A DNA stretch of 64,000 nucleotides from an uncultured Nitrospira sp. (GTDB lineage: Bacteria; Nitrospirota; Nitrospiria; Nitrospirales; UBA8639): contig NZ_CABVRQ010000005.1 of NCBI RefSeq assembly GCF_902500695.1, positions 14,390-78,389 of the forward strand. The letters run 5' to 3'. The translations under genes were made by a program, and so were the position numbers. Shown one piece after another: positions 15,521 through 30,272 of the stretch (the first letter of the stretch is position 1; each line of letters begins with the position of its first letter). Below the pieces are notes generated by a model. The model searched no databases. It had not been told where the DNA came from and worked only from the letters and a program-made list of their open reading frames with translations.

Positions 15521-17314
15521 ATGACATATACGATGAGCGATTCTTCAGAATTTTCTTACTCCCAGGATTCTTCTCCGTCGGCTGGTTCCTCATTTTCAAA
15601 ATCATCCCGTCAGTCCGGGGATTCTCCATTAGCACTCATTGACCAATGCTTGGCATCTTTGCCTGAAGGGGATCAACGAATTCCCTTGCTCTATCAACTT
15701 CGACACCGGCTTGTTGAACAAACGACGGTTTCCCAACAACAGGAAGCCGACATGAAAAAACTCCAGGGGGTGCTTGAAAAACTAACGGCCCCGGCGAATC
15801 GAATCGGGACGTTGTTGGGTCAGCCTGATAAGGGCGTAGCCAGAATCATGGTTGGTGGGGCGGAATACTATGCCAATGTCGATCCGAGGCTCGAGAGGGA
15901 TGGCTTTAAGGTTGGACATCAGATTTTGGTGAATGAGGCGTATGTCGTCATCCGGTCTCTCGGGTATGACCGGAGTGGCCCGATCGTAAAAGTTCGCGAG
16001 ATATTAGGTGATGGGCGTCTTCGTATTGACCAAGAGGCTGGCAGACAAGGCATTCTTATTCAACGGGCTGATGATCTTGCCTCTGCGGACCTGAAGGTTG
16101 GCGACGAGGTTCGATTGGACCCGACTCACAGGATTGCCATTGAACGTTTGGAGAATTCCCAAGGCCAATCGCATCTTTTAGCGGAGTTGCCAACTGTGCG
16201 GTGGGAGCATATTGGTGGCCAGCAGGAAGCCATTGGGGCCATTCGCCGGTCAATAGAATACCCGCTCCTGCATGAAGGATTATTCTCACGGTATCAATTT
16301 CAGCAACCCAAGGGGTTTCTGCTGTATGGCCCCCCGGGGTGCGGAAAAACGTTGATCGGTCAAGCCACGGCTGCAAGCCTTGGGCAACTCTTAGCGCAAG
16401 AACGCGATACCATCACGCCCATTGTTGGGAATCAGGGGCAAGATTCTCTTTCACAGCTTCCACCGATCGAGGGCGGGGTGTTTCTGCATGTTAAAGGTCC
16501 GGAAGTCCTGAATATGTGGGTCGGGGAATCAGAACGAATCATCCGGGATTTATTTCTCCAAGCCCGGCAACAACGACAGGCCGGAAAGTTACCGTTTATT
16601 TTTATCGATGAAGCGGAATCCATTTTAGGGACGAGACGGGCGGTGCGATCCTACAATGTCTCCAACACCCTGGTGCCGATGTTTTGCGCCGAACTCGACG
16701 GGATTGAAAGCCTTTCCCAGGTGGTGGTGATTTTGGCCTCGAATCGTCCGGATATGATTGACCCGGCAGTGCTGCGTCCTGGAAGAATTGATCGAAAAAT
16801 TAAAGTTGGCCGACCTGGGCGAAATGATGTTGGGGAAATTTTGCGTGTCTATTTGACGGCTGATCTTCCGTACGAAACGAAGAAAGGTACTGGCAGCATA
16901 GAAGATGAAGGGATGCCGGTGTCGCGCATCATCGACGGACTGTTAGAGAATCTCTTTCAGCGGAGCCAGGAGAATCGAGTGTTGGCTATTCGATTGCGTA
17001 ACGGACGGCGAGATATTCTCTACCGTCGGGATTTATTGAGTGGAGCGGTGTTGGCGGGAATCGTCCGTCGTGCCAAAGAACGGGCCATTGAACGGGCGAT
17101 TCAAGCGGGTGACCAGGAACCATCGGGGCTGAGTCTTGATGATTTACTCATTGCCACCAATGAAGAATTCAAGGAGAGTGAAATATTTCCCCCAGATGAT
17201 TCAGCTGAGGAATGGTTGAAACTCTTGGATTATCACCCGGACCAGGTTGTCGGAGTGTCCTCCCTTCAGTCAGGAAAGGACGGAGAAGAGCATCGGACCT
17301 CTCAAATTGTTTAA
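15521..17314 (+). CDS. mpa: proteasome-associated AAA+ ATPase (Mpa/ARC)
   Basis: 597 aa. Ser-rich N-terminus, coiled-coil segment and OB-like region. AAA module with Walker A GPPGCGKT, Walker B FIFIDEAES, and RPGRIDRKI. It lies directly upstream of dop. Confidence 0.9.
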   Translation: MTYTMSDSSEFSYSQDSSPSAGSSFSKSSRQSGDSPLALIDQCLASLPEGDQRIPLLYQLRHRLVEQTTVSQQQEADMKKLQGVLEKLTAPANRIGTLLGQPDKGVARIMVGGAEYYANVDPRLERDGFKVGHQILVNEAYVVIRSLGYDRSGPIVKVREILGDGRLRIDQEAGRQGILIQRADDLASADLKVGDEVRLDPTHRIAIERLENSQGQSHLLAELPTVRWEHIGGQQEAIGAIRRSIEYPLLHEGLFSRYQFQQPKGFLLYGPPGCGKTLIGQATAASLGQLLAQERDTITPIVGNQGQDSLSQLPPIEGGVFLHVKGPEVLNMWVGESERIIRDLFLQARQQRQAGKLPFIFIDEAESILGTRRAVRSYNVSNTLVPMFCAELDGIESLSQVVVILASNRPDMIDPAVLRPGRIDRKIKVGRPGRNDVGEILRVYLTADLPYETKKGTGSIEDEGMPVSRIIDGLLENLFQRSQENRVLAIRLRNGRRDILYRRDLLSGAVLAGIVRRAKERAIERAIQAGDQEPSGLSLDDLLIATNEEFKESEIFPPDDSAEEWLKLLDYHPDQVVGVSSLQSGKDGEEHRTSQIV

Positions 17315-17373: not shown

Positions 17374-18903
17374 ATGAACCCGATTCGCCTCTTTGGTATT
17401 GAGACCGAGTACGGGATTGCGCGGGAGGATGTCGTGACAGCCGATCCTGTGGTGGAGTCCATGGAGTTGGTGCGGGCCTATCTTGACGGACATTTTACCC
17501 GACGCTGGGATTATCGAGGCGAGCATCCCCATGAAGATCAACGGGGGTTTCGTGTGACCGAGTTAGCTCAGGATAAAGAAGAGGACCTGTTCGCGGAGCA
17601 GGATGCCCATCGGCCTTTTTCATTCCACGAAATGAAAAGTGACCTTGTCCTCCCCAATGGTGCACGATTTTATAATGACCACACCCATCCGGAATATTCT
17701 ACGCCGGAATGCCGGTCTCTCAAGGATATGGTCGCGCATGACCGGGCTGGGGAACGAATCCTTTGGATGGCAGCGCAACGCCGAAACAAAGATCTTGGTG
17801 GCCCAATGGTTCAGCTGTATAAAAACAACACGGATTTTCATGGGCATAGTTATGGCTGCCATGATAATTATTTGGTCTCGCGCGCACTCAATTTTGAAAA
17901 TTTGACTCGTGGACTCATGCCTTTTCTGGTCAGCCGACAATTGATTGCCGGCGCAGGCAAGGTCGGTCGGGAAGCGCAAGAGCGCGGGTTTGTGCCGGGT
18001 GGATTTCAATTGTCCCAACGCGCAGATTTTATGGAGGCCGAGTTGGGCGTAGATACCATGCATAACCGCCCCATTCTCAACACACGAGACGAACCGCATG
18101 CGAATCGCGAGCGCTATCGACGCCTCCATCTCATCGTGGGCGATGCCAATATGTGTGAGTATGCCACAGCCTTGAAGATAGGCACGACACGGGTGGTGTT
18201 GGATATGATTGCGGGAGGGCTCTTGCTGCCCTGTGAATTAGACTCTCCGGTGCAGGCGATTCAGGCGCTGTCCCGTGATCCTGAATTGAACACACTTGTG
18301 AAGCGGAAAGCTGGGGGCATGATTTCCGGGCTGGATATTCAACGGGAATATTTGAATCTGGCCGGGAAATTTTTCATCGAAATGGATGAAGAGACGACCT
18401 GGATTCTTCAAGAATGGGAGCATGCGTTAGACCTTCTCGAACGGGATCGATTGCAGCTTGTGGGGAAAATCGATTGGGTGACAAAATGGTGGTTACTCGA
18501 AACATTTAGACAGGCCGAGCACATCGGCTGGGACGATCCTTGGCTGGCCAGCCTGGATCTGGAATATCATAATCTGGATCCCGAGCGCGGTCTGTTTTTC
18601 GGGTTAGAAGCTGAAGGGCGAACAACCCGGGTGAGTCAGGAGCAGGAGATTCAGAAAGCCATGAAGCATGGACCGATCGATACGCGTGGAGGGATTCGGG
18701 GATTGTGTGTGCAACGATTTGAAAAAGACATTACATCGATACAATGGGAAGGGGTTCATTTCCAGGGTCACAATGGAGGACTGCATCTTGACCTGCTGGA
18801 TCACCTTGAGCCTGTGTCGGTAGCTCAATGTCGGTCCGTGATTGAGCATGCCAAGACTCCCTTTGATCTAATGGAATCCATGAAAGTGGAGAATTTCCCT
18901 TAG
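17374..18903 (+). CDS. dop: Pup/UBact deamidase-depupylase (Dop)
   Basis: Start set at the ATG at 17374 (MNPIRLFGIETEYGI), because the track ORF from 17212 overlaps mpa. Carboxylate-amine ligase fold shared with PafA. It has a ~35-40 aa insertion (WDYRGEHPHEDQRGFRVTELAQDKEEDLFAEQDAHRPFSFHEMKSD) before NGARFYNDHTHPEYSTPEC, at the place of the Dop-specific loop, and sits in the mpa-dop position. Confidence 0.8.
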   Translation: MNPIRLFGIETEYGIAREDVVTADPVVESMELVRAYLDGHFTRRWDYRGEHPHEDQRGFRVTELAQDKEEDLFAEQDAHRPFSFHEMKSDLVLPNGARFYNDHTHPEYSTPECRSLKDMVAHDRAGERILWMAAQRRNKDLGGPMVQLYKNNTDFHGHSYGCHDNYLVSRALNFENLTRGLMPFLVSRQLIAGAGKVGREAQERGFVPGGFQLSQRADFMEAELGVDTMHNRPILNTRDEPHANRERYRRLHLIVGDANMCEYATALKIGTTRVVLDMIAGGLLLPCELDSPVQAIQALSRDPELNTLVKRKAGGMISGLDIQREYLNLAGKFFIEMDEETTWILQEWEHALDLLERDRLQLVGKIDWVTKWWLLETFRQAEHIGWDDPWLASLDLEYHNLDPERGLFFGLEAEGRTTRVSQEQEIQKAMKHGPIDTRGGIRGLCVQRFEKDITSIQWEGVHFQGHNGGLHLDLLDHLEPVSVAQCRSVIEHAKTPFDLMESMKVENFP

Positions 18904-19140
18904 GGGGTAGTCTTCTCATTTTGAGAGAAATCTTACCTTCACCTTGAAATTTTTTCATCAAATCTTTGGTTTGATTCGTATGCCAGCTTAGGAGCAATTT
19001 CTCCATGAAATGGTTGGTGATCTTTATGGCGAATAAGTTGGTGTTGGTGAAATGAACGAAGGGCAGCCGCCCCGAATTTCACAAAAGGAAGAAGGGAATT
19101 TTGAGAATTGTTAGTTGATCTAAGAACAAAAAAGGAAGTA

Positions 19141-19875
19141 ATGCCTAACTCCTTTACCTTCCTTGAAAAGAATAGAGTTGTTAGACTCACTGATGGCGGG
19201 TTCTGGCTTTCTGATGAAAAAAAGATATACGAGTATCAACGGTTCACCGCACTCATTAAGGACCTTCAGAGGGAAAAAATAAAAATACTTGATGTAGGAT
19301 GTGGTAAGGGGCGCGTACCAAGAACATTGGTTGAAGATTCACATATTAATGTCGAATTCGAATATTCTGGTTTTGATGTGGATCAAAATGACATTCATGA
19401 AAACATTACGTTCTTTCAGTTTGATAAACGATTCACATTTAACCATATTGATTATATGAATAAAATGTACAGCCCAAACGCTTCGACAAAGGAGCCCGTT
19501 TTTGACTTTTTAGGCGATTCATATGATTTGATTTGGGCATGGAGCGTTTTTTCTCATCTGGACATAAAAGATTTTGAAATGTATATGAGCCTCATTTCTG
19601 ATAAATTGGTAAAAAATGGTTTTGCTTTTTTTACATGTTTTAGCAGATATGAGGCAAAACACAATCCCGAATTTACACCAAATTATATTTTTTTAGAGAA
19701 TAGTGATTTACCTGCTAACGGTGGCAAGCAAAATAATAATGATTTAACTGCTGTTTGCTACCACCCCGGTTGGATTGATGATTTGTTAATGAAGCTAGGG
19801 TTAGAGGTCATTCTGTCCTGCTATCCCGTTTATGGTGGGAATTTTCAAACAGGTATTTATTTAAGAAAAGTGTAA
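19141..19875 (+). CDS. class I SAM-dependent methyltransferase, compositionally foreign (very A/T-rich)
   Basis: Start at the ATG at 19141 (MPNSFTFLEK). Motif I ILDVGCGKGRVP, then YDLIWAWSVFSHL and LVKNGFAFF. The DNA is visibly far more A/T-rich than the flanking dop and UBact genes. Confidence 0.75.
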   Translation: MPNSFTFLEKNRVVRLTDGGFWLSDEKKIYEYQRFTALIKDLQREKIKILDVGCGKGRVPRTLVEDSHINVEFEYSGFDVDQNDIHENITFFQFDKRFTFNHIDYMNKMYSPNASTKEPVFDFLGDSYDLIWAWSVFSHLDIKDFEMYMSLISDKLVKNGFAFFTCFSRYEAKHNPEFTPNYIFLENSDLPANGGKQNNNDLTAVCYHPGWIDDLLMKLGLEVILSCYPVYGGNFQTGIYLRKV

Positions 19876-19973
19876 TAGAGAAAGCTCTGCAATTTCGAAC
19901 GTCAAAATACCCTTTAACCAAATCATTCTATTTCGGCCAGAAAGCCAAAAAGCTTATGTGGAGGATGAGATTT

Positions 19974-20189
19974 ATGAGAAACGAATGTGAGTATATCCAA
20001 ACGGGTGGAGGGCTTGAACGAAAAGAGCGGCCGGTTGAACCACTTTCCAGGCCATCGGGACCTGGTGACCAGGAATCAGGTCCTAAACGACCGGAAACTG
20101 ATTCCCCATCCCGTGATAATCTCATGAAACGCATGCGAAAGGTGGATCCCAAGCAGGCGGAAAAGTATCGTCAACGGACCGGGGAATAG
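19974..20189 (+). CDS. ubact: UBact (Pup-homologous small protein modifier) ending in -RTGE
   Basis: 71 aa from the ATG at 19974, 9 nt after GGAGG. Sequence: MRNECEYIQTGGGLERKERPVEPLSRPSGPGDQESGPKRPETDSPSRDNLMKRMRKVDPKQAEKYRQRTGE. It is predicted disordered and Pro/Gly/Ser-rich, has a C-terminal Gly-Glu, and its stop codon ends at 20189, directly before the prcB start at 20191. Confidence 0.75.
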   Translation: MRNECEYIQTGGGLERKERPVEPLSRPSGPGDQESGPKRPETDSPSRDNLMKRMRKVDPKQAEKYRQRTGE

Positions 20190-20190
20190 G

Positions 20191-20982
20191 ATGGGACAAC
20201 AGGGAGATTTCCTTCAGGTTCTCCGAGAACGTGGTTATGCGGTTGACGACCTTCGTCAGTCAATCAATGGCAGCGTGCCATCCGGCCATATAGGGATTAC
20301 CAGCGGCACGACGGTCTTTGCTATCAAGTATGCGGATGGCGTGCTTGTGGCTGGTGACCGCCGGGCAACGGCCGGAAATGTCGTGATGTATGATCGGACT
20401 GATAAGGTATTGGAATTGGATCGTTTTTCCGTGTTAGCCATTGCAGGGGTTCCTGCTACCGCGTTTGAAATGGCCAGAATATTAGAGCATTCCTTTAAGT
20501 ATTACCGGAGAAGCCAATTGCAGGATTTGAGTTTTGAGGGAAAGTTACGAGCTTTATCCACGTTGTTGAAAAACAATGCACCTGCAGCGTTGGCAGGAAC
20601 GGGAACCGTGGCGCCAGTTTTTGCAGGGTATGATCAACTTGAAGGATGCGGAAAGATTTTTTTCTACGATATCTTAGGAGCTGAGTTTGAGGCGGTGGAA
20701 TATGCGGTTTCTGGCTCGGGATCTTCCACGATTCGGGGGATTTTGTTTTATATGAATCGGTGGGGAAATGGTCCCGTTGCCGAGATGAATGAAGAAGACG
20801 CCCTGACATTCGTGCTCCGTCTTATGACCAGTGCGGCAGAGTTCGATTCCGCCACCGGTGGAGTGGACGCCCAGGCCCAACTGTATCCAGTCGTCAAGCG
20901 CATTTCAGCCGAGGGGGTGAGAACCATTCCGGCCGAACGGTTGAAGTCGCTGTTTTCAGAAAAGGTGTTGAACCATGTATGA
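20191..20982 (+). CDS. prcB: 20S proteasome beta subunit
   Basis: 263 aa. Propeptide followed by the catalytic Thr context ITSG/TTVFAIKYADGVLVAGDRRATAG, plus SGSGS. Confidence 0.9.
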   Translation: MGQQGDFLQVLRERGYAVDDLRQSINGSVPSGHIGITSGTTVFAIKYADGVLVAGDRRATAGNVVMYDRTDKVLELDRFSVLAIAGVPATAFEMARILEHSFKYYRRSQLQDLSFEGKLRALSTLLKNNAPAALAGTGTVAPVFAGYDQLEGCGKIFFYDILGAEFEAVEYAVSGSGSSTIRGILFYMNRWGNGPVAEMNEEDALTFVLRLMTSAAEFDSATGGVDAQAQLYPVVKRISAEGVRTIPAERLKSLFSEKVLNHV

Positions 20983-21793
20983 AGAACCCTATCGATGGAT
21001 TGAAGCCGTCGCCAATCGGCGAAATTATCTTGACGATCAATTTACGCAAGGCAATCCGTTAGTCGGCGTCTCCTTTGCGCAAGGGATTCTTCTGTTGACC
21101 TTTAATCGGGGAACGGAAAAGATCTATGAAATTTACGATCGCATCGCCTTAGGAGGCATGGGACATCCGGCGGATCTGGAGAAGCTACGGTATAGCTTAT
21201 TGGATATGGCTCACGTCGAAGGATTTCAACGGTCACCGGCGGATGTCACTGCTTCCCGCCTGATGAAAAATGGTCTAGCCCCTGCCATTAAACAGGCCTT
21301 TGAAGAAATTTTCAAGGCACCGTACATTGCTAAAATTTTGCTGGCAGAAGTCGGGGCTACTCAGGATCGTGACCGTTTGTTCAGCATCAACTATGATGGC
21401 ATGTTCGAGGAACAACGGGAATTCGGGGTGCTGGCGGCCTCCCCATCCATCCGTGGGCTTCTCACTCAGGAATGGAAAAGCCATAGTCCTCTCTCTTCTT
21501 TGCAGTCTGCGGTGGAGGTGAGTCTCCGACTGTGGGGGATTGCGAGTCATCTCCAAACCTCGACTCCCTCTCCCGATACGGAAGAGGAAGGAACCACCTC
21601 TTTACCAGCCACTTCCATGTCCACCATTCCGGACGATGAGGCGATTGCTTCACGAATTCGTGAAACGCTGTCCAAAGAATCACTGGAATGTGTGTTGCTG
21701 GATCGGGAGAGCGGGAAGATGGAAACCTATCGTGCTCTGAGTCCGTCGGAACTTCAGTCCTTCATTCCTTCGGTGTTTCAACCTGCCACCTAA
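20975..21793 (+). CDS. prcA: 20S proteasome alpha subunit
   Basis: 272 aa with 8-nt overlap with prcB. IYEIYDRIALGGMG, APYIAKILLAEVG and FSINYDGMF align with bacterial PrcA. Ser/Thr/Pro-rich C-terminal extension. Confidence 0.85.
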   Translation: MYEEPYRWIEAVANRRNYLDDQFTQGNPLVGVSFAQGILLLTFNRGTEKIYEIYDRIALGGMGHPADLEKLRYSLLDMAHVEGFQRSPADVTASRLMKNGLAPAIKQAFEEIFKAPYIAKILLAEVGATQDRDRLFSINYDGMFEEQREFGVLAASPSIRGLLTQEWKSHSPLSSLQSAVEVSLRLWGIASHLQTSTPSPDTEEEGTTSLPATSMSTIPDDEAIASRIRETLSKESLECVLLDRESGKMETYRALSPSELQSFIPSVFQPAT

Positions 21794-21815: not shown

Positions 21816-23348
21816 ATGCATAATCGAATCTTCGGCATTGAAACCGAATATGGCCTGCTCATAAAGGCCGATCAACCGGACGTGTCTCCTCCCTGGGTTG
21901 CACGCCGGATCATTGAACATTTATTTGGACAGAAAAAACATGGCGTGATTGATTGGCATTATCGTGGGCATGATGAACCTCCAGGCAATGGAGGATTTTT
22001 GCTCAATGCAGGCCGGATGTATGTGGATATGGGGCATCTTGAATATGCCTCGCCGGAATGCCATTTGTTGTGGGATTTAGTGGCTGTGGACCGTGCAGGA
22101 GATTGGCTGTTGCAGGACTGTTTAGAAGAGCTTGGCCTCTCAGAACAGGTGTCGATCATTAAAAACAATATTGATCATGAGACAGACGCAACATTTGGCT
22201 GCCATGAAAATTACCTGGTCACCAGGGATTTTCCCTTTACCTACCAAGGGTTGGGGTTGCTCATGCCGTTTCTGGTGACACGCCAGGTCTTTACCGGGGC
22301 CGGCCGAATCGGGATGGCGCGTTCCGTGGACGGCTGGATTAGCCTGGACGATATTGAAGGACGTGGGGGAGACCGGTCACGGGGATCAGTGGGAGAGGGG
22401 GTGATCTATCAAATTTCCCAGCGCCCGGATTACATCGTCAACGATTTTTTCGAATGGGTCCAGCACAACCGGGCTATTGTGAATACCCGGGATGAACCCC
22501 TGGCTGATCCAGAGCGATTCCGGCGGTTGCACCTGCTCATGGGCGATTCGAACATGGCCGAGGAAGCGACCTTATTGAAAATGGGCACGACCGGGCTGGT
22601 TCTCCAGTTGATCGAAGAAGGCTATGCTCCGCAAGGGTTGGATTTCGATGATCCCGTCCAGACCCTACGCGCCATCTCTCACGACCCTCAGCAAAAATGG
22701 ATGGTTACCCTATCAACCGGCCGGCGCTTTTCAGCCTTGGATATTCAAGAGCAGTTTTGGGAAGCCGCGAACAAACAGTATGCCGGACAGGATGAGGAAA
22801 CAGACTGGGTCCTAGCCCATTGGGAATCGGTAGTGAAGGATTTACGAAAAGGTTATCATGCCGTGGTTGGCCGGGTTGACTGGGCTTCTAAGCTTTCGTT
22901 GTTGGAAGCCTTTCGGGAAGCGGAGAAGTTAGATTGGGACGATCCCTGGTTAAAAAGTCTGGATTTGGAATATCACAATGTCGATCCACACGCAGGGCTG
23001 TATCATGGCATGACAGAGGAAGGCGATGCGCCGCGCTTTACGACGAATGAACTGGTCGAGTTGGCGAAAGGTCAACCACCACGAAATACCCGTGCATTTG
23101 GGCGATCCGAAGTCATTCGCCATGTCGTTAGGGAAGGGTGGGCGGATTTTTTAGAGAAGGCGTCCGGCCATCATGATCCGCGTCGCCCCCCCTATGTCAT
23201 CAATTGGTCGGTTTTGCAACTTCAGGGAAGTCCGGCTTTTGTCATGGCCGATCCCTTTCGCAGCTATGTGCAGGAAAGCCGCGATTATTGCAAAGAATGG
23301 TCCTCTCGCCCCTCCCTGGAATCCCTCCCTAATAAACAAAAGACCTAA
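21816..23348 (+). CDS. pafA: Pup/UBact--protein ligase (PafA)
   Basis: 510 aa. MHNRIFGIETEYGLL, GHLEYASPEC and FGCHENYLV. It lacks the N-terminal Dop-type loop present in the 17374 paralog, and it is positioned after prcA as in the canonical cluster. Confidence 0.8.
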   Translation: MHNRIFGIETEYGLLIKADQPDVSPPWVARRIIEHLFGQKKHGVIDWHYRGHDEPPGNGGFLLNAGRMYVDMGHLEYASPECHLLWDLVAVDRAGDWLLQDCLEELGLSEQVSIIKNNIDHETDATFGCHENYLVTRDFPFTYQGLGLLMPFLVTRQVFTGAGRIGMARSVDGWISLDDIEGRGGDRSRGSVGEGVIYQISQRPDYIVNDFFEWVQHNRAIVNTRDEPLADPERFRRLHLLMGDSNMAEEATLLKMGTTGLVLQLIEEGYAPQGLDFDDPVQTLRAISHDPQQKWMVTLSTGRRFSALDIQEQFWEAANKQYAGQDEETDWVLAHWESVVKDLRKGYHAVVGRVDWASKLSLLEAFREAEKLDWDDPWLKSLDLEYHNVDPHAGLYHGMTEEGDAPRFTTNELVELAKGQPPRNTRAFGRSEVIRHVVREGWADFLEKASGHHDPRRPPYVINWSVLQLQGSPAFVMADPFRSYVQESRDYCKEWSSRPSLESLPNKQKT

Positions 23349-24440
23349 TGCTCGGAGCGAGTATAGCCGGGTGACTCAGTCTGCCGTTTTCCAGTAGGGA
23401 TAATTTTAACTTAATAGGGGAAGTCAAATGGACAAATGTATAGTTGAATCAAAACTTTTTTCAAACGAAATCAGCTCTAGACTACCTGAATTTCCAGAAT
23501 TGTAACTCCAAGTGACAACCTAATATCTCTAGAGTCTCATCTTTTCGTGGTTTCGTGGCGGATACCCGTGTTATATCGTGGCATTCCGGCACAAAGATTT
23601 GTTGTTGAAAAGACGTCCCAAAATTTCAGTCGCTTTATTGGAAATTTCAAGTAACCCGCCGATTAGACCTTTGCTTCATGATTTGCGATCTATTAGGCGG
23701 GGATGAATTCCTTCTTTTTGTACTGTATTGCCTAGGAAAGGCCTGGGAAGGCATAATTTTAGATAACAATGGATGAGGCAGGGTGTTTGTGCTCTCCCAG
23801 GCTTTCAGAAATTCGAAACTTAAACGAAGATAACTGAGGACTTTGTTTTTATGGACCGAATAGACTTATAGGTCTATTCTGTGACTAGGGCTGGGAGGAC
23901 AGAATTTCCAGAGAGAATTTGGTAACTGTCAATCCGGATGAATTCTATGACGCCTACGTTTTGTCATCAAGCGGGCTTTCTTTTATTTCAGAGATAACCC
24001 GTTGTCTGTCATTGCAGAAACTTTTTTGGACTCACGTTCAGGAAGGCAGGTCCCGGTGCGGAATAAATTCCTAGCATTGAGCGCTATTGCGTTCTTGGGG
24101 ACTCCGGTAGTTAGGAATGGATATGCCTCCCTGTACTCAAATCGACATGGTTTTAATTTGAGGAATTGATTTTTTTCTTGCTGAGCTCTCCATATCTGTA
24201 CCCAAAATATATCAACGCCTGTATTCTTTAAGTTATGGGATAACCGACCTCTTCCACTTATTTAACTTAACAGGATTGGGTTCTGTTCCTTCCTATCAAA
24301 GGTGGTATTTGGTGTGTACCACGATTTTTTTTGACGCTGAAGAGTATCTCTGGATGGAAAGTCATCATCTGTAATCGACTGAAAAATGTGAGCACACTTC
24401 GATCCATTGTTCAAAATTTCACTTGGAAAAAGTACTCAAA

Positions 24441-25535
24441 ATGAAAATTAGCCCAGTACTATTTATTTCAGTCTGTTTACTCACGGTAGCCTGCACCTAT
24501 AAAAAAGAAACTGAAATTATTGATACTCATAAGGTGATTTATCCAGTCGTAGAAGACGCGGAGTATAGCAGCAAATATGTCGCCCAAATTCAATCGGTCA
24601 ATTATGTGGAGATACGAAGCAGAATTAAAGGGTATATTGAAAAAATTTATGTGGATGAAGGGCAGCCGGTCAAAAAAGGGCAGTTGCTGTTTTCTCTGAT
24701 CTATAACGTTTTTGAAAAAGAATTGCAAAAAGCGAATGCGGCGTATAGAAGTGCACTGGCAGATTTAAAGGTTGCGCAAGTTGAAATGGCAAACGTGAGA
24801 GTGCTGGTAGAAAAAACCATTGTGTCCAAAACGGAGCTGGATGTCATTCAAGCAAAGGTTGATGCCTTGAAAGCCGACGTGGAAGAAGCGATGGCAAACA
24901 AAGAGCAGCAAGCCTTAAATCTTTCATTTTCAAAGATACGAGCCCCCTATGACGGCTTTATTAACCGTATTCCAAACAAGGTGGGAAGCTTGATAGCCGA
25001 AGGAGACATCTTGACCTCTCTTTCTGATAATCGGGAGGTCTTCGCCTATTTCAATCTTTCGGAAGTCGATTACCTTAATTACATTGCCTCTGGCGAACGA
25101 GGGACCAATGTGGTGAACTTTGAACTCGCCAACCATGCCCTGTATGGGTATGAAGGGACCATAGAAATGATTGAAAGTGAATTTGACAGTTCGACGGGGA
25201 ATATTGCGTTTAGGGCCAGATTCCCCAACCCTGATGGACTGTTAAAGCAAGGGGCCAATGGGAAAGTCATTGTCAATAAAATCCTGAAAAATGCCTTGCT
25301 CATCCCTCAAAAATCAACATTTGAAATTCAAGATCAAATGTATGTGTACGTGGTGAATCAAGAAAGTGTGTTAGAGCAAAGGAATATTGTCTATAAAATG
25401 CGATTGCCAAATTTTTACGTGGTGGAGTCCGGATTATCAAAGGACGAACAAATTCTGTTCGAGGGGGTAGAGAATGTGATGAATGGGGACAAGGTGCATC
25501 CTGTTCATGTTGAGATGGCCAAGGCCATGCCGTGA
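24441..25535 (+). CDS. RND efflux periplasmic adaptor (HlyD/MFP family) lipoprotein
   Basis: ATG at 24441 (MKISPVLFISVCLLTVAC lipobox). VEIRSRIKGYIEKIYVDEGQPVKKGQLLFSL lipoyl-like hairpin, coiled-coil segment, and IRAPYDGFI. A/T-rich. Confidence 0.9.
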   Translation: MKISPVLFISVCLLTVACTYKKETEIIDTHKVIYPVVEDAEYSSKYVAQIQSVNYVEIRSRIKGYIEKIYVDEGQPVKKGQLLFSLIYNVFEKELQKANAAYRSALADLKVAQVEMANVRVLVEKTIVSKTELDVIQAKVDALKADVEEAMANKEQQALNLSFSKIRAPYDGFINRIPNKVGSLIAEGDILTSLSDNREVFAYFNLSEVDYLNYIASGERGTNVVNFELANHALYGYEGTIEMIESEFDSSTGNIAFRARFPNPDGLLKQGANGKVIVNKILKNALLIPQKSTFEIQDQMYVYVVNQESVLEQRNIVYKMRLPNFYVVESGLSKDEQILFEGVENVMNGDKVHPVHVEMAKAMP

Positions 25536-25566
25536 ATCAGTCAAGATTGAGGTACATGAGATCCCT

Positions 25567-28500
25567 ATGACGGCCATATTTATTCATCGTCCCGTTCTAT
25601 CCATTGTTATATCTCTGTTCATCACATTGCTGGGCTTGTTGTCCTTTACCCAGCTTCCTGTTACCCAGTTTCCCGAGATTACTCCTCCCGAAGTCACTGT
25701 GACAACAAACTTTATTGGTGCGAATGCCGAAGCTGTGGTCAAGGCGGTTGTGACGCCACTCGAACGAGCCGTGAATGGTGTCGCTGGCATGGCTTACATG
25801 TCGTCCGTTTCCGGCAATGATGGGAAGAGCATTATCCAGATTATTTTTAAGGCCGGGACCGACCCGGAAATCGCCGCTGTGAATGTTCAGAACAGAGTGG
25901 CTTCCGCGTTGGACGAGTTGCCCCCAGAGGCGATTAAATCCGGAGTGATCGTCGAGAAGGTACAAAACAGTATGTTGTTGTATATCAACATACTCAGTCT
26001 GGATCCGACGATAGACGAAAAATTTCTCTACAATTTCACCGATATTAATATCCTGAAAGAGCTGAAAAGAATAGATGGTGTAGGTTTTGCGGAGATTATG
26101 GGGTCAAGGGAATATGCCATGCGTGTGTGGCTGAAGCCCAATAAATTGGTTATGTACAACATTTCAGCTCTTGAGGTCATCGAAAAAATAAAAGCTCAGA
26201 ATATAGAGGCCGCGCCGGGTAAAATTGGTGAAAGCTCAGGTAAGGATAAGAACGCCCAGGCCCTTCAGTATGTGTTGAAATATACCGGCAAACACAATAC
26301 ACAAGAAGCCTATGAAGAACTTGTGTTAAGCAGTACGGATGATGGGGAAATTGTACGACTCAAAGATGTGGCGGAGATTGATTTCGATTCCCAGGATTAT
26401 GGAGTTCTTTCTAAGGAGAACGGGCAAGCTTCTGCGGCTATTGTGTTAAAACAGCGCCCGGGCAGCAATGCCCAGGAGGTGATCAATAGGATCAAGGAGA
26501 AAATGGAGGAAATTAAATCGGCGTCATTTCCTCCAGGGATGGATTTCAGCCTCAGTTATGATGTTTCTGAGTTTTTGGATGCGTCCATTGACCAAGTTCT
26601 GACAACCCTGCTTGAGGCATTTCTTCTGGTATCTCTGGTGGTCTTTATCTTTTTGCAGAATGTACGGCTCACCATCATTCCCATTCTGGCCGTACCTGTT
26701 TCGCTGGTCGGTACATTTTTTTTCATGCATATGATGGGTTTTTCCCTGAATCTCATCACGCTATTTGCGTTGGTTCTTGCCATCGGGATTGTTGTCGATA
26801 ATGCGATCGTGGTGATTGAAGCCGTTCATGCCAAAATGGAGGATTCAGGAATTGGAGCCCAACTAGCCACGGAACAAGCCATGCATGAAATTAGCGGAGC
26901 CATTGTGGCCATTACCCTGGTCATGTCGGCGGTGTTTTTGCCCGTGGCCTTTATGGATGGCCCAACGGGAATTTTTTACAGGCAGTTTTCTTTGACTATG
27001 GCCTGTTCTATCGTTCTTTCAGGGGTAACGGCCCTCACTCTGACCCCCGCCCTTTGTGCCGTGTTTCTTAAAAATACCCACAACAGCCAACATCCTCAAC
27101 AATCGCGGCTTCAGAAATTATTTGATGGATTCAATCGTTGGTATGACAAACTTTCTAGTAATTATAAAAAACTTATTAGCGCGATAGCGAACAGAAGGAT
27201 GATCACTTTTGGGATCCTGCTTGGTTTTTCCGTGAGCACCGGTTTGATCGGGGCGTTTGTTCCTTCGGGTTTTATTCCGAATGAGGACCAAGGGACGATC
27301 TATGCCAATGTCACTGCTCCAACAGGTGCGACTCTTGAACGTACGGAAAAAGTTGTCGATGAGGTGCAACGTATTGCATCAGGATTAGAGACTGTTACTT
27401 CCGTCTCAAGTCTGGCCGGGTTCAGCATCCTGTCTGAAGGAACGGGTGCCGTCTATGGAATGAATCTGATCAGTTTGAAAAATTGGAATGAACGAATGGC
27501 TTCTGATAATGAAATTATCAGGGTTCTTGAAGAAAAAACCCAACATATTAAAGATGCCAGCATTGAATTTTTTACCCCTCCCCCTGTGCCGGGTTATGGG
27601 AATTCCAGCGGTTTTGAAATGCGGTTGTTAGACAAAACCGGTTCGGGCACCCTTGAGGAATTGCAAAAAACGGCGGATGACTTTGTCGATGACCTCAATA
27701 AGCGGCCGGAAATCGCTAATGCCTTTACCACATTCAATGCACGCTTTCCTCAGTTTATGCTCCATATTGATGGCGATAAGGCCGGTCAGAAGGGAGTCAC
27801 TGCTGAGAATGCGATGAATACCCTTCAAGCACTGATTGGCAGTGTGTATGCGACCAACTTCACCCGCTTCGGCCAGATGTATAAAGTCATGGTCCAGGCG
27901 CTTCCCGAATTTCGTGCGGAACCTGACGACCTGATGAAGTTATATATCAAAAATGACGAAGGGGAAATGGTTCACTTTTCCTCTTTTCTTCGCATTGAAA
28001 AAATTTATGGTCCTGAGCAGGTGACCCGTTACAATATGTACCCCTCAGCCATGATCAATGGGCAGCCTGCCAAAGGGTACAGCAGCGGGCAGGTTATTAC
28101 GGCCATCAAAGAGGTGGCTGCCAGTAAATTGCCGAAAGGGTTTGGGTACGATTGGGCAGGGTCATCCCGAGATCAGGCTAACATGGGAAATCAGGCCATT
28201 TATATTTTTCTGATTTGCTTATTATTCGTGTACCTCCTCCTGGCCGCACAATATGAGAGTTTTCTGCTGCCCATGGCGGTAATTCTTTCTCTACCAATTG
28301 GGATATTTGGTGCCTTATTTTTTCTGTTGATTATGGGCTTGGAAAATAATATCTATGCTCAAATCGCGATGGTTATGTTAATTGGCATTCTCGGCAAAAA
28401 TGCCATTTTGATCATCGAATTCGCATTATTGCAGCGTAGAATAGGTAAAACACCGTATGAAGCGGCGATTGAAGGGGCGGCGCTTCGTTTGCGCCCTATA

Positions 28501-28776
28501 TTGATGACATCGTTTGCATTTATTGCCGGTCTCCTTCCCCTCATGTTTGCCTCGGGTGCAGGTGAGATTGGAAATAATACCATTGGCTCGGCGGCGGCGG
28601 GAGGTATGTTCTTCGGGACAATTTTCGGCGTGATTCTTATCCCGGGTTTATATGTGGTATTTGCAACCATGGGTGAGACTCAAAAACGTGAGGAAAGATC
28701 AAAAACAGGGAAAGCTTCCCGTTTGAGTTTCAAGTCTCGGTTTAAACTTGCACGCAGGTTGGCAAAACTCCAATAG
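25567..28776 (+). CDS. RND (AcrB/HAE1-type) inner-membrane efflux pump
   Basis: Start set at the ATG at 25567 (MTAIFIHRPVLSIVISLFI), the standard AcrB N-terminus. ~1070 aa with 12-TM architecture and two large periplasmic loops. VDNAIVVIE and ILGKNAILIIEFA motifs. Confidence 0.95.
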   Translation: MTAIFIHRPVLSIVISLFITLLGLLSFTQLPVTQFPEITPPEVTVTTNFIGANAEAVVKAVVTPLERAVNGVAGMAYMSSVSGNDGKSIIQIIFKAGTDPEIAAVNVQNRVASALDELPPEAIKSGVIVEKVQNSMLLYINILSLDPTIDEKFLYNFTDINILKELKRIDGVGFAEIMGSREYAMRVWLKPNKLVMYNISALEVIEKIKAQNIEAAPGKIGESSGKDKNAQALQYVLKYTGKHNTQEAYEELVLSSTDDGEIVRLKDVAEIDFDSQDYGVLSKENGQASAAIVLKQRPGSNAQEVINRIKEKMEEIKSASFPPGMDFSLSYDVSEFLDASIDQVLTTLLEAFLLVSLVVFIFLQNVRLTIIPILAVPVSLVGTFFFMHMMGFSLNLITLFALVLAIGIVVDNAIVVIEAVHAKMEDSGIGAQLATEQAMHEISGAIVAITLVMSAVFLPVAFMDGPTGIFYRQFSLTMACSIVLSGVTALTLTPALCAVFLKNTHNSQHPQQSRLQKLFDGFNRWYDKLSSNYKKLISAIANRRMITFGILLGFSVSTGLIGAFVPSGFIPNEDQGTIYANVTAPTGATLERTEKVVDEVQRIASGLETVTSVSSLAGFSILSEGTGAVYGMNLISLKNWNERMASDNEIIRVLEEKTQHIKDASIEFFTPPPVPGYGNSSGFEMRLLDKTGSGTLEELQKTADDFVDDLNKRPEIANAFTTFNARFPQFMLHIDGDKAGQKGVTAENAMNTLQALIGSVYATNFTRFGQMYKVMVQALPEFRAEPDDLMKLYIKNDEGEMVHFSSFLRIEKIYGPEQVTRYNMYPSAMINGQPAKGYSSGQVITAIKEVAASKLPKGFGYDWAGSSRDQANMGNQAIYIFLICLLFVYLLLAAQYESFLLPMAVILSLPIGIFGALFFLLIMGLENNIYAQIAMVMLIGILGKNAILIIEFALLQRRIGKTPYEAAIEGAALRLRPILMTSFAFIAGLLPLMFASGAGEIGNNTIGSAAAGGMFFGTIFGVILIPGLYVVFATMGETQKREERSKTGKASRLSFKSRFKLARRLAKLQ

Positions 28777-28841
28777 TCTCGAAATCGTCAGGGAGCCCCA
28801 TCAAATTTCAACGAACGTTAGCAGCCCTTCGCTCATATCCC

Positions 28842-30272
28842 ATGAACAATAAACTGTATTCTAACCTTGTTGTTTTTGTTATTGTCGTCACGTTCAGTGG
28901 TTGCACAGGCCTGAAAACCGACTTGGCCATTCCGGAAAACGAAATACCAACAACCTTTAAGGACAAAACAGATACCACGAATATTGCTGACATCCAGTGG
29001 AGAGATTACTTTGTCGATCCGCTCCTCCATAAATTAATTGATACCGCCATAGAGAATAACCTTGATTTGCAAATGGCGTTGCAGCGAATTGAAAATTCGC
29101 GTTCAAGTGTCAGAGCAGCAACCGGTGCCCTGATGCCGACGATGGGTTTGGGTGTAGGAACCGCTATTCGCCGATACGGAGACTACACCATGGATGGGGC
29201 AGGGAACGCGACGACCGACTTTAAATCCGGTCAAACCATTCCCGCTAATTTACCGGATCTTTTTGTGGGCTTACAGTCATCATGGGAAGTTGATATTTGG
29301 GGCAAGTTGCAAAATCAGCGCAGTTCAGCCATTTCGAAATTCCTGGCCAGTATCGAAGGGACGAGCTTTGTCGTGTCAAATCTTGTTGCCGATGTAGCAA
29401 TTTATTACAACGAATTGCGGGCTTTGGATAATGAGTTGGATATCATCAGGCAAACCCTTCACACACAGTACGAATCGTTGGAGGTGGTTGAACTGCAGAA
29501 GGAAGCCGGCAGGGCAACTGAATTAGCCGTGGAGCTATTCAAGGCTCAAGTGCTCAATACCAGTATTTTGGAAAAAGAGGTCCTTCAACAAATTGTTGTC
29601 ACTGAAAATCATATTAACTTTCTGTTAGGGCGCTTTCCACAGCCCATTGAACGGACCAAAGGCCAATATTTCACAGAAATTCTACATGAGATTTCATCGG
29701 GTGTTCCTTCACAATTATTGGCAAACCGCCCGGATGTCCGTGAAGCCGAATTTCAGATCAAGGCCAGTAAGTTCGATTTGAAAGTAGCCAAGGCCTCTTT
29801 TTTCCCAAGCTTTAATATCACAGCAAGTTTTGGGTTTCAGGCATTCAATCCCGATTTTTTATTTGTGGCGCCTTCCTCAATTGCCTATACCGCGGTAGGC
29901 ACGTTGGTCGCCCCACTTATTAATAGAAACGCGTTACACGCACAGTTCAATAATGCCGAAGCCAATCAGTTGACTGCCATGTATCAGTATCAGAAAACAA
30001 TTTTGAACGCCTATGTTGAAGTGGCCAATGAACTTTCTAATATTCATAACTTGCGAAAAATCAATACTCTGAAAAAGCAACAAAACGAAGTATTGCAACA
30101 ATCTGTTGAAACATCACACTTACTCTATAGATATGGCAGGGCAAGCTATCTTGAGGTTCTCATTGCACAACGGAATGCCCTGCAATCCAATCTCGAATTA
30201 ATTAATTTTGCCAAGCAACTTCGTATCGCGGCAGTGAAAATCTACAAGGCATTAGGCGGCGGATGGAAATAA
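28842..30272 (+). CDS. outer-membrane efflux factor lipoprotein (NodT/TolC family)
   Basis: 476 aa. Lipobox VTFSGC, duplicated TolC-type helical repeats, and the typical C-terminal ending KALGGGW. Confidence 0.9.
   Translation: MNNKLYSNLVVFVIVVTFSGCTGLKTDLAIPENEIPTTFKDKTDTTNIADIQWRDYFVDPLLHKLIDTAIENNLDLQMALQRIENSRSSVRAATGALMPTMGLGVGTAIRRYGDYTMDGAGNATTDFKSGQTIPANLPDLFVGLQSSWEVDIWGKLQNQRSSAISKFLASIEGTSFVVSNLVADVAIYYNELRALDNELDIIRQTLHTQYESLEVVELQKEAGRATELAVELFKAQVLNTSILEKEVLQQIVVTENHINFLLGRFPQPIERTKGQYFTEILHEISSGVPSQLLANRPDVREAEFQIKASKFDLKVAKASFFPSFNITASFGFQAFNPDFLFVAPSSIAYTAVGTLVAPLINRNALHAQFNNAEANQLTAMYQYQKTILNAYVEVANELSNIHNLRKINTLKKQQNEVLQQSVETSHLLYRYGRASYLEVLIAQRNALQSNLELINFAKQLRIAAVKIYKALGGGWK

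Follow-up and report, generated by a model that had tools for sequence, protein, structure and literature searches.

The window analysed here is a stretch of 64,000 nucleotides from an uncultured Nitrospira sp. (contig C5:14390-78389 of a 4.28-Mb assembly, GC 50.1%), and it carries a complete UBact-proteasome gene cluster on the + strand, in the order mpa-dop-methyltransferase-UBact-prcB-prcA-pafA. The subject of this work is the gene for a class I S-adenosylmethionine (SAM)-dependent methyltransferase that lies between dop and UBact. Our analysis makes it probable that this gene came with a single, old insertion of foreign DNA, that it is dispensable, that it has been redistributed as an allele among related species, and that it encodes an accessory passenger standing outside the UBact pathway. 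Throughout, genomes are labelled G (G000 being the genome of this stretch), loci or contigs L, and protein clusters or relatives P.

Specifically, we propose that about 1.05 kb of foreign low-GC DNA with one methyltransferase gene would have inserted once, directly behind the stop codon of dop, duplicating a few target bases (TAGTTY, possibly up to ~15 nt). The recipient would have been the ancestor, or else an early member, of a single subclade of Nitrospira from marine and sediment settings. From then on the gene would have changed at the pace of the operon, with purifying selection acting on it wherever it was kept, and the native 'empty' allele would have persisted beside the 'filled' one. 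Lineage sorting would have spread both alleles, as would homologous recombination between the conserved flanks in dop and prcB, giving the patchy distribution described below.

Foreign composition, distribution and age

The methyltransferase open reading frame (ORF) has a GC content of 35.0%, and the whole 18904-19973 segment one of 36.3%, against 51-52% in the neighbouring dop, prcB, prcA and pafA. Measured against the genome (50.05 ± 3.7% in 768-bp windows), the ORF lies at z = -4.06, and only 6 of 10,610 windows are equally low. Its GC content at third codon positions (GC3) is 0.333 compared with 0.533 ± 0.061, a value undercut by just 3 of 2,094 long ORFs, and its Karlin codon bias B of 0.427 places it in the top 2.1% overall and in the top 3.5% of size-matched ORFs. 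This contrast is real and far beyond chance. An earlier note on this DNA, made by eye, had described the segment as much more A/T-rich than its neighbours and different in codon style, and had proposed a horizontal insertion; once windowed GC and codon usage were computed, the difference from the neighbours proved significant and both descriptions held.

The direction of change within the gene points the same way. Among polarised singleton changes in the methyltransferase, AT-to-GC changes outnumber GC-to-AT changes by 81 to 35 (binomial p = 2e-5), whereas the neighbours show 309 against 421 (Fisher test versus the methyltransferase, p = 4e-8), the per-site rates of change being the same in the gene and its neighbours. 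The implied equilibrium GC3 is 0.45 compared with a current 0.30, and amelioration is under way in every carrier lineage. The AT-to-GC excess thus suggests foreign DNA that is still ameliorating towards the composition of its host, and the fact that this process is ongoing suggests acquisition near the base of the subclade, not much earlier. Atypical composition, restricted distribution and a substitution bias towards the host, the three marks of an acquired islet, are all present in this gene, and the horizontal origin proposed in the earlier note is supported by these comparisons.

The restricted distribution emerged from searches at several scales. A word-indexed search of 5.8 billion proteins returned just two clusters, at 85% and 78% identity, and the dop-methyltransferase-UBact order was found on every contig with the 78% protein as well as on the 85% contig. 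An HMMER scan of 1.84 billion representatives added a 54%-identical fragment (P0003) and a full-length relative at 34% (P0004), all others being generic methyltransferases with E >= 1e-18; the only two matches at E <= 1e-30 were the protein's own cluster and the 54%-identical fragment. Within the genus the gene occupies the dop-UBact junction in 7 of 50 species genomes (G000, G011, G018, G048, G055, G057 and G061). The homologous insert, coding and non-coding parts alike, has identical junctions in these seven, in the P0002 contigs (L003-L008) and in L009, so that it is common to at least nine lineages, seven species genomes and two metagenomic, of one subclade.

In the genomes without the insert UBact begins 5-21 nt after dop, and there is no copy of the methyltransferase elsewhere. 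About half of the closest relatives of the carriers lack this gene, and the empty state cannot be put down to faulty assembly, since it is also seen in closed genomes (G041 and G042). The 16 genomes examined from the order's other families all lack the gene. Conservation across distant UBact clusters, an outcome that the earlier note had allowed for, was therefore not what we found, the gene being confined to one subclade, and on this distribution it is dispensable.

The insert is nevertheless not young, although the earlier note had called it recent. In a comparison of seven intact orthologues the synonymous divergence (dS) of the methyltransferase was 0.493, compared with 0.45-0.54 for mpa, dop, UBact, prcB, prcA and pafA, and its ratio of nonsynonymous to synonymous divergence (dN/dS) was 0.153, compared with 0.07-0.13 for these six operon genes. 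The methyltransferase tree is compatible with the tree of the flanks, with the same closest pairs in both (G000-G055, the former tree's support for which is 100/99, and G061-G057). Equal dS and identical closest pairs imply that gene and operon have diverged together, and the dN/dS implies that purifying selection maintains the protein. The same junction in at least nine lineages and a dS equal to that of the flanks date the insertion to approximately the base of the subclade.

Filled and empty alleles and the limits of the insert

The tree built from prcB-prcA-pafA places every carrier in a single clade of 17 rows (100/100), which also contains nine non-carriers interleaved with them, and seven changes of state are needed; an independent rpoB tree recovers the same clade (100/100) and needs four. 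Three pairs of sisters differ in state in both trees (G055 with and G008 without the gene, G011 with and G050 without, G018 with and G042 without), and a fourth, G000 with and G023 without, appears in the operon tree alone, G023 having no rpoB match.

The empty alleles inside the subclade are informative about how this pattern arose. All nine keep the native-type dop end gtattaaaaaaaTAGTTC, which matches the right-hand relic of the filled alleles and not their left copy, and six of the nine have in common a derived Dop tail, VLK(K/N). Carrier G011 and its empty sister G050 differ by 2-5% along dop and along prcB to pafA, and by 10-19% from ~200 bp left to ~375 bp right of the site. In G023 the tract at the junction is closest to that of G045, which is also empty, and the remaining dop is closest to that of G000. 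These divergent tracts suggest allele replacement by homologous recombination, and the simplest reading of the alignments is that two coexisting allele classes have been exchanged by such recombination or sorted among lineages. No haplotype linking the carriers was found, as distances within carriers, within non-carriers and between the two groups are about equal up to the junction.

The limits of the gene and of the insert were taken from an alignment of eight orthologous inserts (filled alleles). The upstream start at 19108, 33 nt 5' of an internal ATG at 19141, is ATG in six orthologues and TTG in G000 and G055, and G057 has ATT at the internal position. The upstream start is preceded by an in-frame TGA (19102-19104), conservation among the inserts rises sharply at 19094, and P0003, a homologue from outside the group, likewise begins MLMD. 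Judged by start-codon conservation, the in-frame TGA and the conservation jump, the gene most likely spans 19108-19875 on the + strand and encodes 255 aa from a TTG start (with ATG 19141 as the alternative), leaving flanks of 204 bp and 98 bp. The earlier note had given 244 aa, a 237-bp 5' flank and a 98-bp 3' flank; of these only the last stands, together with the motif ILDVGCGKGRVP and the two A/T runs that it quoted, all three of which are present in the sequence.

The 5' non-coding part of the insert (18904-19107, + strand, GC ~38%) evolves fast and holds no conserved ORF, and the 3' non-coding part (19876-19955, + strand) ends, in the alignment of inserts, in a relic of the dop terminus. 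Mean pairwise identity is 0.49-0.68 in the 5' flank and 0.39-0.47 in the 3' flank, compared with 0.8-0.98 in the coding sequence, and in G055 the 3' flank has been mostly deleted and the gene kept. With the flanks least conserved and the coding sequence constrained (dN/dS 0.15), selection appears to act on the protein.

The junctions can be read by comparing the two alleles. The native site reads ...aaaaaaTAG TTC ATGTGGAGGATGAGATTT ATG, the last triplet being the UBact start. In filled alleles the right end of the insert, ...aaaTAGTTC ATGTGGAGG..., is a relic of the old dop terminus, and the left end reads ...acagtggagTAGTTY tcttagggg, so that several orthologues have a direct repeat, TAGTTY, at both ends, possibly of ~15 nt and imperfect. 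In the window the left copy of the duplicated terminus (18883-18897, + strand) reads aaagtggagAATTTC, where orthologues have acagtggagTAGTTY, and the right copy, the native dop-terminus relic (~19941-19955, + strand), reads gccaaaaagctt and corresponds by homology to the end of dop in empty alleles. Here the repeat is degenerate, with AATTTC at 18892-18897 on the left and AAGCTT at 19950-19955 on the right, and the mutation of the left-copy TAG to AAT has extended Dop by three codons (18892-18900). To the right of the insert the spacer that natively separates dop from UBact (19956-19973, + strand), which includes the UBact ribosome-binding site (ATGTGGAGGATGAGATTT), is intact, and almost every genome with an empty site has the same sequence in front of UBact, whether it belongs to the subclade or not. 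As aligned, then, the insertion supplied the dop stop codon and left the UBact ribosome-binding site untouched.

The earlier note had reported no flanking repeats and no mobility gene. We agree that the insert holds no mobility gene and that there is no convincing terminal inverted repeat, but the TAGTTY repeat overturns the part of that statement which concerned direct repeats. The sole inverted repeat flanking the ORF, of 13 nt (19092-19104/19902-19914), is poorly conserved and deleted in G055.

Several known kinds of element were considered as the source of the insert. An insertion sequence (IS), transposon or miniature inverted-repeat transposable element (MITE) has observations on both sides: we found no transposase and no conserved terminal inverted repeat, and several orthologues do have the TAGTTY direct repeat at both ends, so that such an origin seems doubtful rather than refuted. 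For an integron cassette there is no notable or attC-like palindrome in the poorly conserved 98-bp 3' flank, and a 204-bp 5' leader is atypical of a cassette. A phage or plasmid origin found no phage match, and matches to plasmid records were just 27-30% identical. Nor does the 5' flank appear to hide a second gene: the minus-strand ORFs at 18939-19190 and 18731-19006 are not conserved and have no Pfam or NCBIfam match, although a short peptide patch, QLIRHxDHQPFHG, recurs across the 5' flanks in differing frames. No RNA element was found in the flanks by Rfam at E <= 1.

Some further irregularities were seen around the site in individual genomes. G048 (L064) carries about 100 bp of extra DNA downstream of the methyltransferase stop and ahead of UBact. 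This stretch contains two hairpin-like repeats rich in GC, ccccgtagcttgctacgtggg and ccccgtcagcttgctgcgggg, and seems to be a further small insertion nested in the first. In the 5' region of the G011 methyltransferase (L061/L027) two single-base deletions in poly-A runs break the frame, and at a contig coverage of ~1x these may be sequencing errors rather than signs of a pseudogene. At the end of dop (18844-18903 in the window, and in orthologues) the last ~8 codons are highly variable across the genus, with the length of the poly-A run shifting the stop, as in the tails KNSSCGG* of G045 and G050; the C-terminal tail of Dop thus appears unconstrained.

The methyltransferase and its position in the operon

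The protein is a class I SAM-dependent methyltransferase by every feature that we compared, its assignment resting on motif I, the acidic residue of strand 2, and agreement of profile and predicted fold. It scores 44.1 bits against Methyltransf_23, for which the Pfam cut-off is 27. In motif I (ILDVGCGKG, residues 60-68) D62, G64, G66 and G68 are invariant among 9 sequences, down to 32% identity, as is the acidic D90 in GFDVD at the end of the predicted strand E83-90. The AF2 model (pLDDT 75, pTM 0.79) is a Rossmann methyltransferase with disordered residues 180-218, and Foldseek matched it to class I methyltransferases with probability 1.0; there were 885 PDB matches at E <= 0.001, and all 50 of the 50 best listed were SAM-dependent methyltransferases or methyltransferase domains.

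Beyond the class, the protein would belong to an almost orphan subfamily, judging by its scarce relatives. Among the matches listed in a donor search (a metagenome scan that used the family alignment) identity did not exceed 42%, or 33% over more than 50 residues. There was no equivalog-level match in NCBIfam, all scores being far below cut-off, and PADLOC and PHROGs, which cover defence-system and phage families, gave generic methyltransferase matches only. A DNA methyltransferase was considered and rejected: the 255 residues contain no (D/N/S)PP(Y/F) motif IV and no PC or ENV motifs, and Pfam, NCBIfam and PADLOC returned no such family. We also tried to assign a substrate from structure and sequence, and the PDB sequence and fold searches gave generic class I methyltransferases only, at TM ~0.5, among them BioC, cap-N7 methyltransferase, NTMT1/NRMT2, PKMT1, FPP methyltransferase, O-methyltransferases and CFA synthase.

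Two relatives from outside the operon deserve mention. P0004 (253 aa, 34% identical in the HMMER scan and 32% in the family alignment) is alignable over its full length, including the C-terminal YHPxWI...YP...N(F/Y)QTGxYL. Its gene, with a GC content of 42%, sits after two other methyltransferase genes (FkbM-type and Methyltransf_23), with a convergent NAD-dependent epimerase adjoining. P0003 ends at residue 202 and lies on a 1.5-kb contig (L070) next to an rve_3 fragment. On that contig a perfect 33-bp inverted repeat (L070:1-33 and 841-873) brackets P0003, with the rve_3 integrase fragment after it, an arrangement that reflects either IS-mediated disruption or an assembly fold-back.

The earlier note had speculated that the enzyme methylates UBact or substrate lysines, with an unrelated passenger as its alternative. 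Genomes that have the methyltransferase and genomes that lack it share the same 35 residues at the C terminus of UBact, and no co-varying UBact residue was seen. Co-occurrence with the cluster is not conserved either, given the counts above and the sister species of carriers that lack the gene. With a generic fold and about half of the closest relatives doing without the enzyme, the speculation finds no support, and the passenger alternative is the better fit to the same evidence. The substrate would then be unrelated to UBact tagging and, by the distant relatives, most likely a small molecule, lipid or glycan.

As regards expression, no intrinsic terminator was predicted on the + strand in either flank. 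Promoter-like matches over the region number 15 compared with 9.9 ± 3.1 in shuffles, the chance level for A/T-rich DNA, and the A/T-rich ORF contains four sigma-70-like matches on the + strand. On these sequence predictions, splitting of the operon by a terminator or promoter is unlikely. With no terminator on either side, the methyltransferase probably depends for its transcription on read-through from the promoter of the operon, and its translation would start from a ribosome-binding site of its own; it is most likely an accessory passenger expressed by read-through.

The junction itself has received other DNA. In four species (G021, L037; G015, L040; G006, L041; G001, L044) the same dop-UBact junction is taken up by an element of 100-130 bp that contains the hairpin CCCTCCTTTGTAAGGAGGGG. 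This hairpin is present in 4-16 copies per genome in these four species and in none in G000, with 0 matches to a reversed control pattern, and the element looks like a repetitive extragenic palindrome (REP) or a MITE. A repeat element at the same place suggests that insertions at the junction recur and are tolerated, in agreement with the passenger reading, and for the methyltransferase too the junction may have been merely a permissive place to land.

Competing explanations and known systems

A recent insertion specific to this genome, or separate recent gains by each carrier, would account for the strongly atypical GC and codons, for the incomplete amelioration and for the patchy distribution; however, all carriers have the same junctions and homologous non-coding flanks, the methyltransferase dS of 0.49 equals that of the flanks, the closest pairs agree between the gene and flank trees and amelioration is under way in every lineage, so that this account is already contradicted and is hardly credible. 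An insert fixed in the ancestor of the subclade and then lost by at least seven independent deletions in situ, with no persistent empty allele and no recombination, agrees with tree parsimony, which permits one gain and many losses, and the flanking direct repeat could mediate excision. Yet after excision between TAGTTY copies dop would end in the left copy, acagtggagTAG, whereas all nine empty alleles of the subclade are native-type and six of them have the common derived VLK(K/N) tail, and the divergent tracts at the site in G011/G050 and G023 indicate allele replacement, which makes such serial deletion quite unlikely. 

That the insert is mainly regulatory, uncoupling UBact-prcBA-pafA from mpa-dop by a new promoter, lost translational coupling or partial termination, with the methyltransferase of minor account, draws on the dop stop of empty alleles, which lies just 5-21 nt before the UBact start and makes coupling plausible where the insert adds ~1.07 kb, and on the four + strand sigma-70-like matches. 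We consider this very unlikely, as promoter-like matches in that number are expected by chance, the non-coding flanks are the least conserved part (0.39-0.68, against 0.8-0.98 and a dN/dS of 0.15 for the coding sequence) and G055 has lost most of its 3' flank but kept the gene. A functional accessory of the UBact-proteasome pathway that methylates UBact, target lysines, Dop/PafA or a proteasome subunit, and so tunes tagging or degradation, would explain why the gene is co-oriented between dop and UBact with no terminators, why purifying selection has kept it in precisely this position in at least eight lineages, and why in these genomes it is never elsewhere; there is also a weak likeness to protein N-terminal methyltransferases (Methyltransf_PK, E 0.0012, below cut-off), and NTMT1/NRMT2 and PKMT1 are among the Foldseek matches. 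We regard this as unlikely: 43 of the genus's 50 species, sisters of carriers among them, do without the gene, as do all 16 genomes from other families, the conserved C-terminal half of UBact is the same with or without it, small-molecule enzymes (BioC, FPP methyltransferase, O-methyltransferases, CFA synthase) match as well or better, the distant homologue sits in a methyltransferase/epimerase cluster and not near a proteasome, and the junction also takes unrelated repeat elements. A bolder form, in which the enzyme is a lineage-specific regulator of UBact tagging (methylating acceptor lysines, the UBact terminus or the ligase/deligase), the proteasome pathway is methylation-gated and the polymorphism stems from balancing selection on the control of proteolysis, is in our judgement a distinctly long shot. 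Some observations do weigh against the old, redistributed passenger that we favour: the trees rest on just two loci; G018 and G042 show no foreign tract (4.5% compared with 2.6-3.5%), which would also suit deletion in situ; the direct repeat is short, 6 nt being sure, and its left copy includes a dop stop that selection would keep anyway; co-directional embedding for a dS of ~0.5 under purifying selection is also expected of a pathway accessory; and the context of P0004 is weak evidence, the fold neighbours at TM ~0.5 including N-terminal and lysine protein methyltransferases (NTMT1/NRMT2, PKMT1).

If the old-passenger reading is right, the insert is a case of ordinary genome dynamics, in which a foreign gene sits at the one place in a conserved proteasome operon where nothing breaks. 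It marks the dop-UBact junction as a permissive site, it warns that low GC is not to be equated with recent transfer, and, with sister Nitrospira species that differ in whether a gene is embedded in the operon, it provides a natural experiment on insertion tolerance and rates of amelioration. Far greater importance would follow only if it were true that the enzyme acts on the UBact pathway.

The operon around the insert has the anatomy described in the earlier note, with the methyltransferase gene between dop and UBact and all genes on the + strand, as borne out by Pfam matches. The operon's first gene (15521-17314) encodes an Mpa/ARC-like proteasomal AAA ATPase (AAA 9.8e-29; Prot_ATP_ID_OB_N/C 1e-16 and 2e-13) and is followed by the dop-like gene of the Pup_ligase family (17374-18903; E 9.8e-162). 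Beyond the insert come the gene for the UBact modifier (19974-20189; 71 aa, C-terminal RTGE; PF20513 E 1.7e-19, above cut-off), prcB (20191-20982) and prcA (20975-21793), with Pfam Proteasome matches of 8.3e-24 and 2e-07, and a pafA-like ligase gene (21816-23348; Pup_ligase 7.6e-129); position in the operon is the sole basis for telling Dop from PafA.

Other variation was noted in and around such clusters. Directly 3' of pafA (23349-30272) GC falls to 38-46% over ~7 kb, a tract made up of an ORF-poor 1.1 kb and then an RND efflux adaptor and pump, and the related contig L003 has other genes (DUF2442) downstream of pafA, so that the operon's downstream edge varies too. In G017 (L069/L038) prcB ends ~210 bp before the prcA start, where all other genomes have an overlap of a few bases, which suggests another small insertion inside the operon. 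Outside the window, G000 holds a second, paralogous proteasome cluster (contig C48:2708-8979, - strand), mpa2-dop2-prcB2-prcA2-pafA2, whose genes are 33-39% identical to those of the window and which has no modifier ORF visible in the ~40 nt that separate dop2 from prcB2; nearly all 50 genomes of the genus have a PrcB paralogue of the same type.

Compared with canonical Pup/UBact-proteasome clusters (mpa-dop-pup/UBact-prcB-prcA-pafA; PMC2588565), the operon keeps all core genes, their order and their orientation, and differs in an extra gene that is lineage-restricted and dispensable. The accessory genes described near such clusters in actinobacteria are FKBP-type isomerases and a DeoR regulator (Iyer et al. 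2008, PMC2588565), and a term search of that paper for a methyltransferase in proteasome gene neighbourhoods gave 0 occurrences. Our library searches on UBact, the proteasome and Nitrospira likewise gave no report of a methyltransferase in these clusters.

As a protein, the enzyme resembles other class I methyltransferases (Pfam Methyltransf_23/12/25, clan CL0063) in motif I, the GFDVD acidic residue and a predicted seven-strand alpha/beta fold, and departs from them in lying outside curated equivalogs and in having a family-specific N-terminal helix region and the disordered insert 180-218. Homologues of the P0004 type have a context typical of glycan or small-molecule modification, not of the proteasome.

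As a piece of acquired DNA, the insert is closest to ameliorating islets, that is, to the horizontally acquired genes and islets undergoing amelioration for which Lawrence and Ochman are said to have given a model. It has in common with them atypical GC and codons, a restricted distribution, the AT-to-GC excess and presence/absence polymorphism among close relatives. It differs in being a single gene without integrase, tRNA or IS, in lying inside a conserved operon and not in a typical island hotspot, and in being old (dS ~0.5) yet still 15 GC points under its host.

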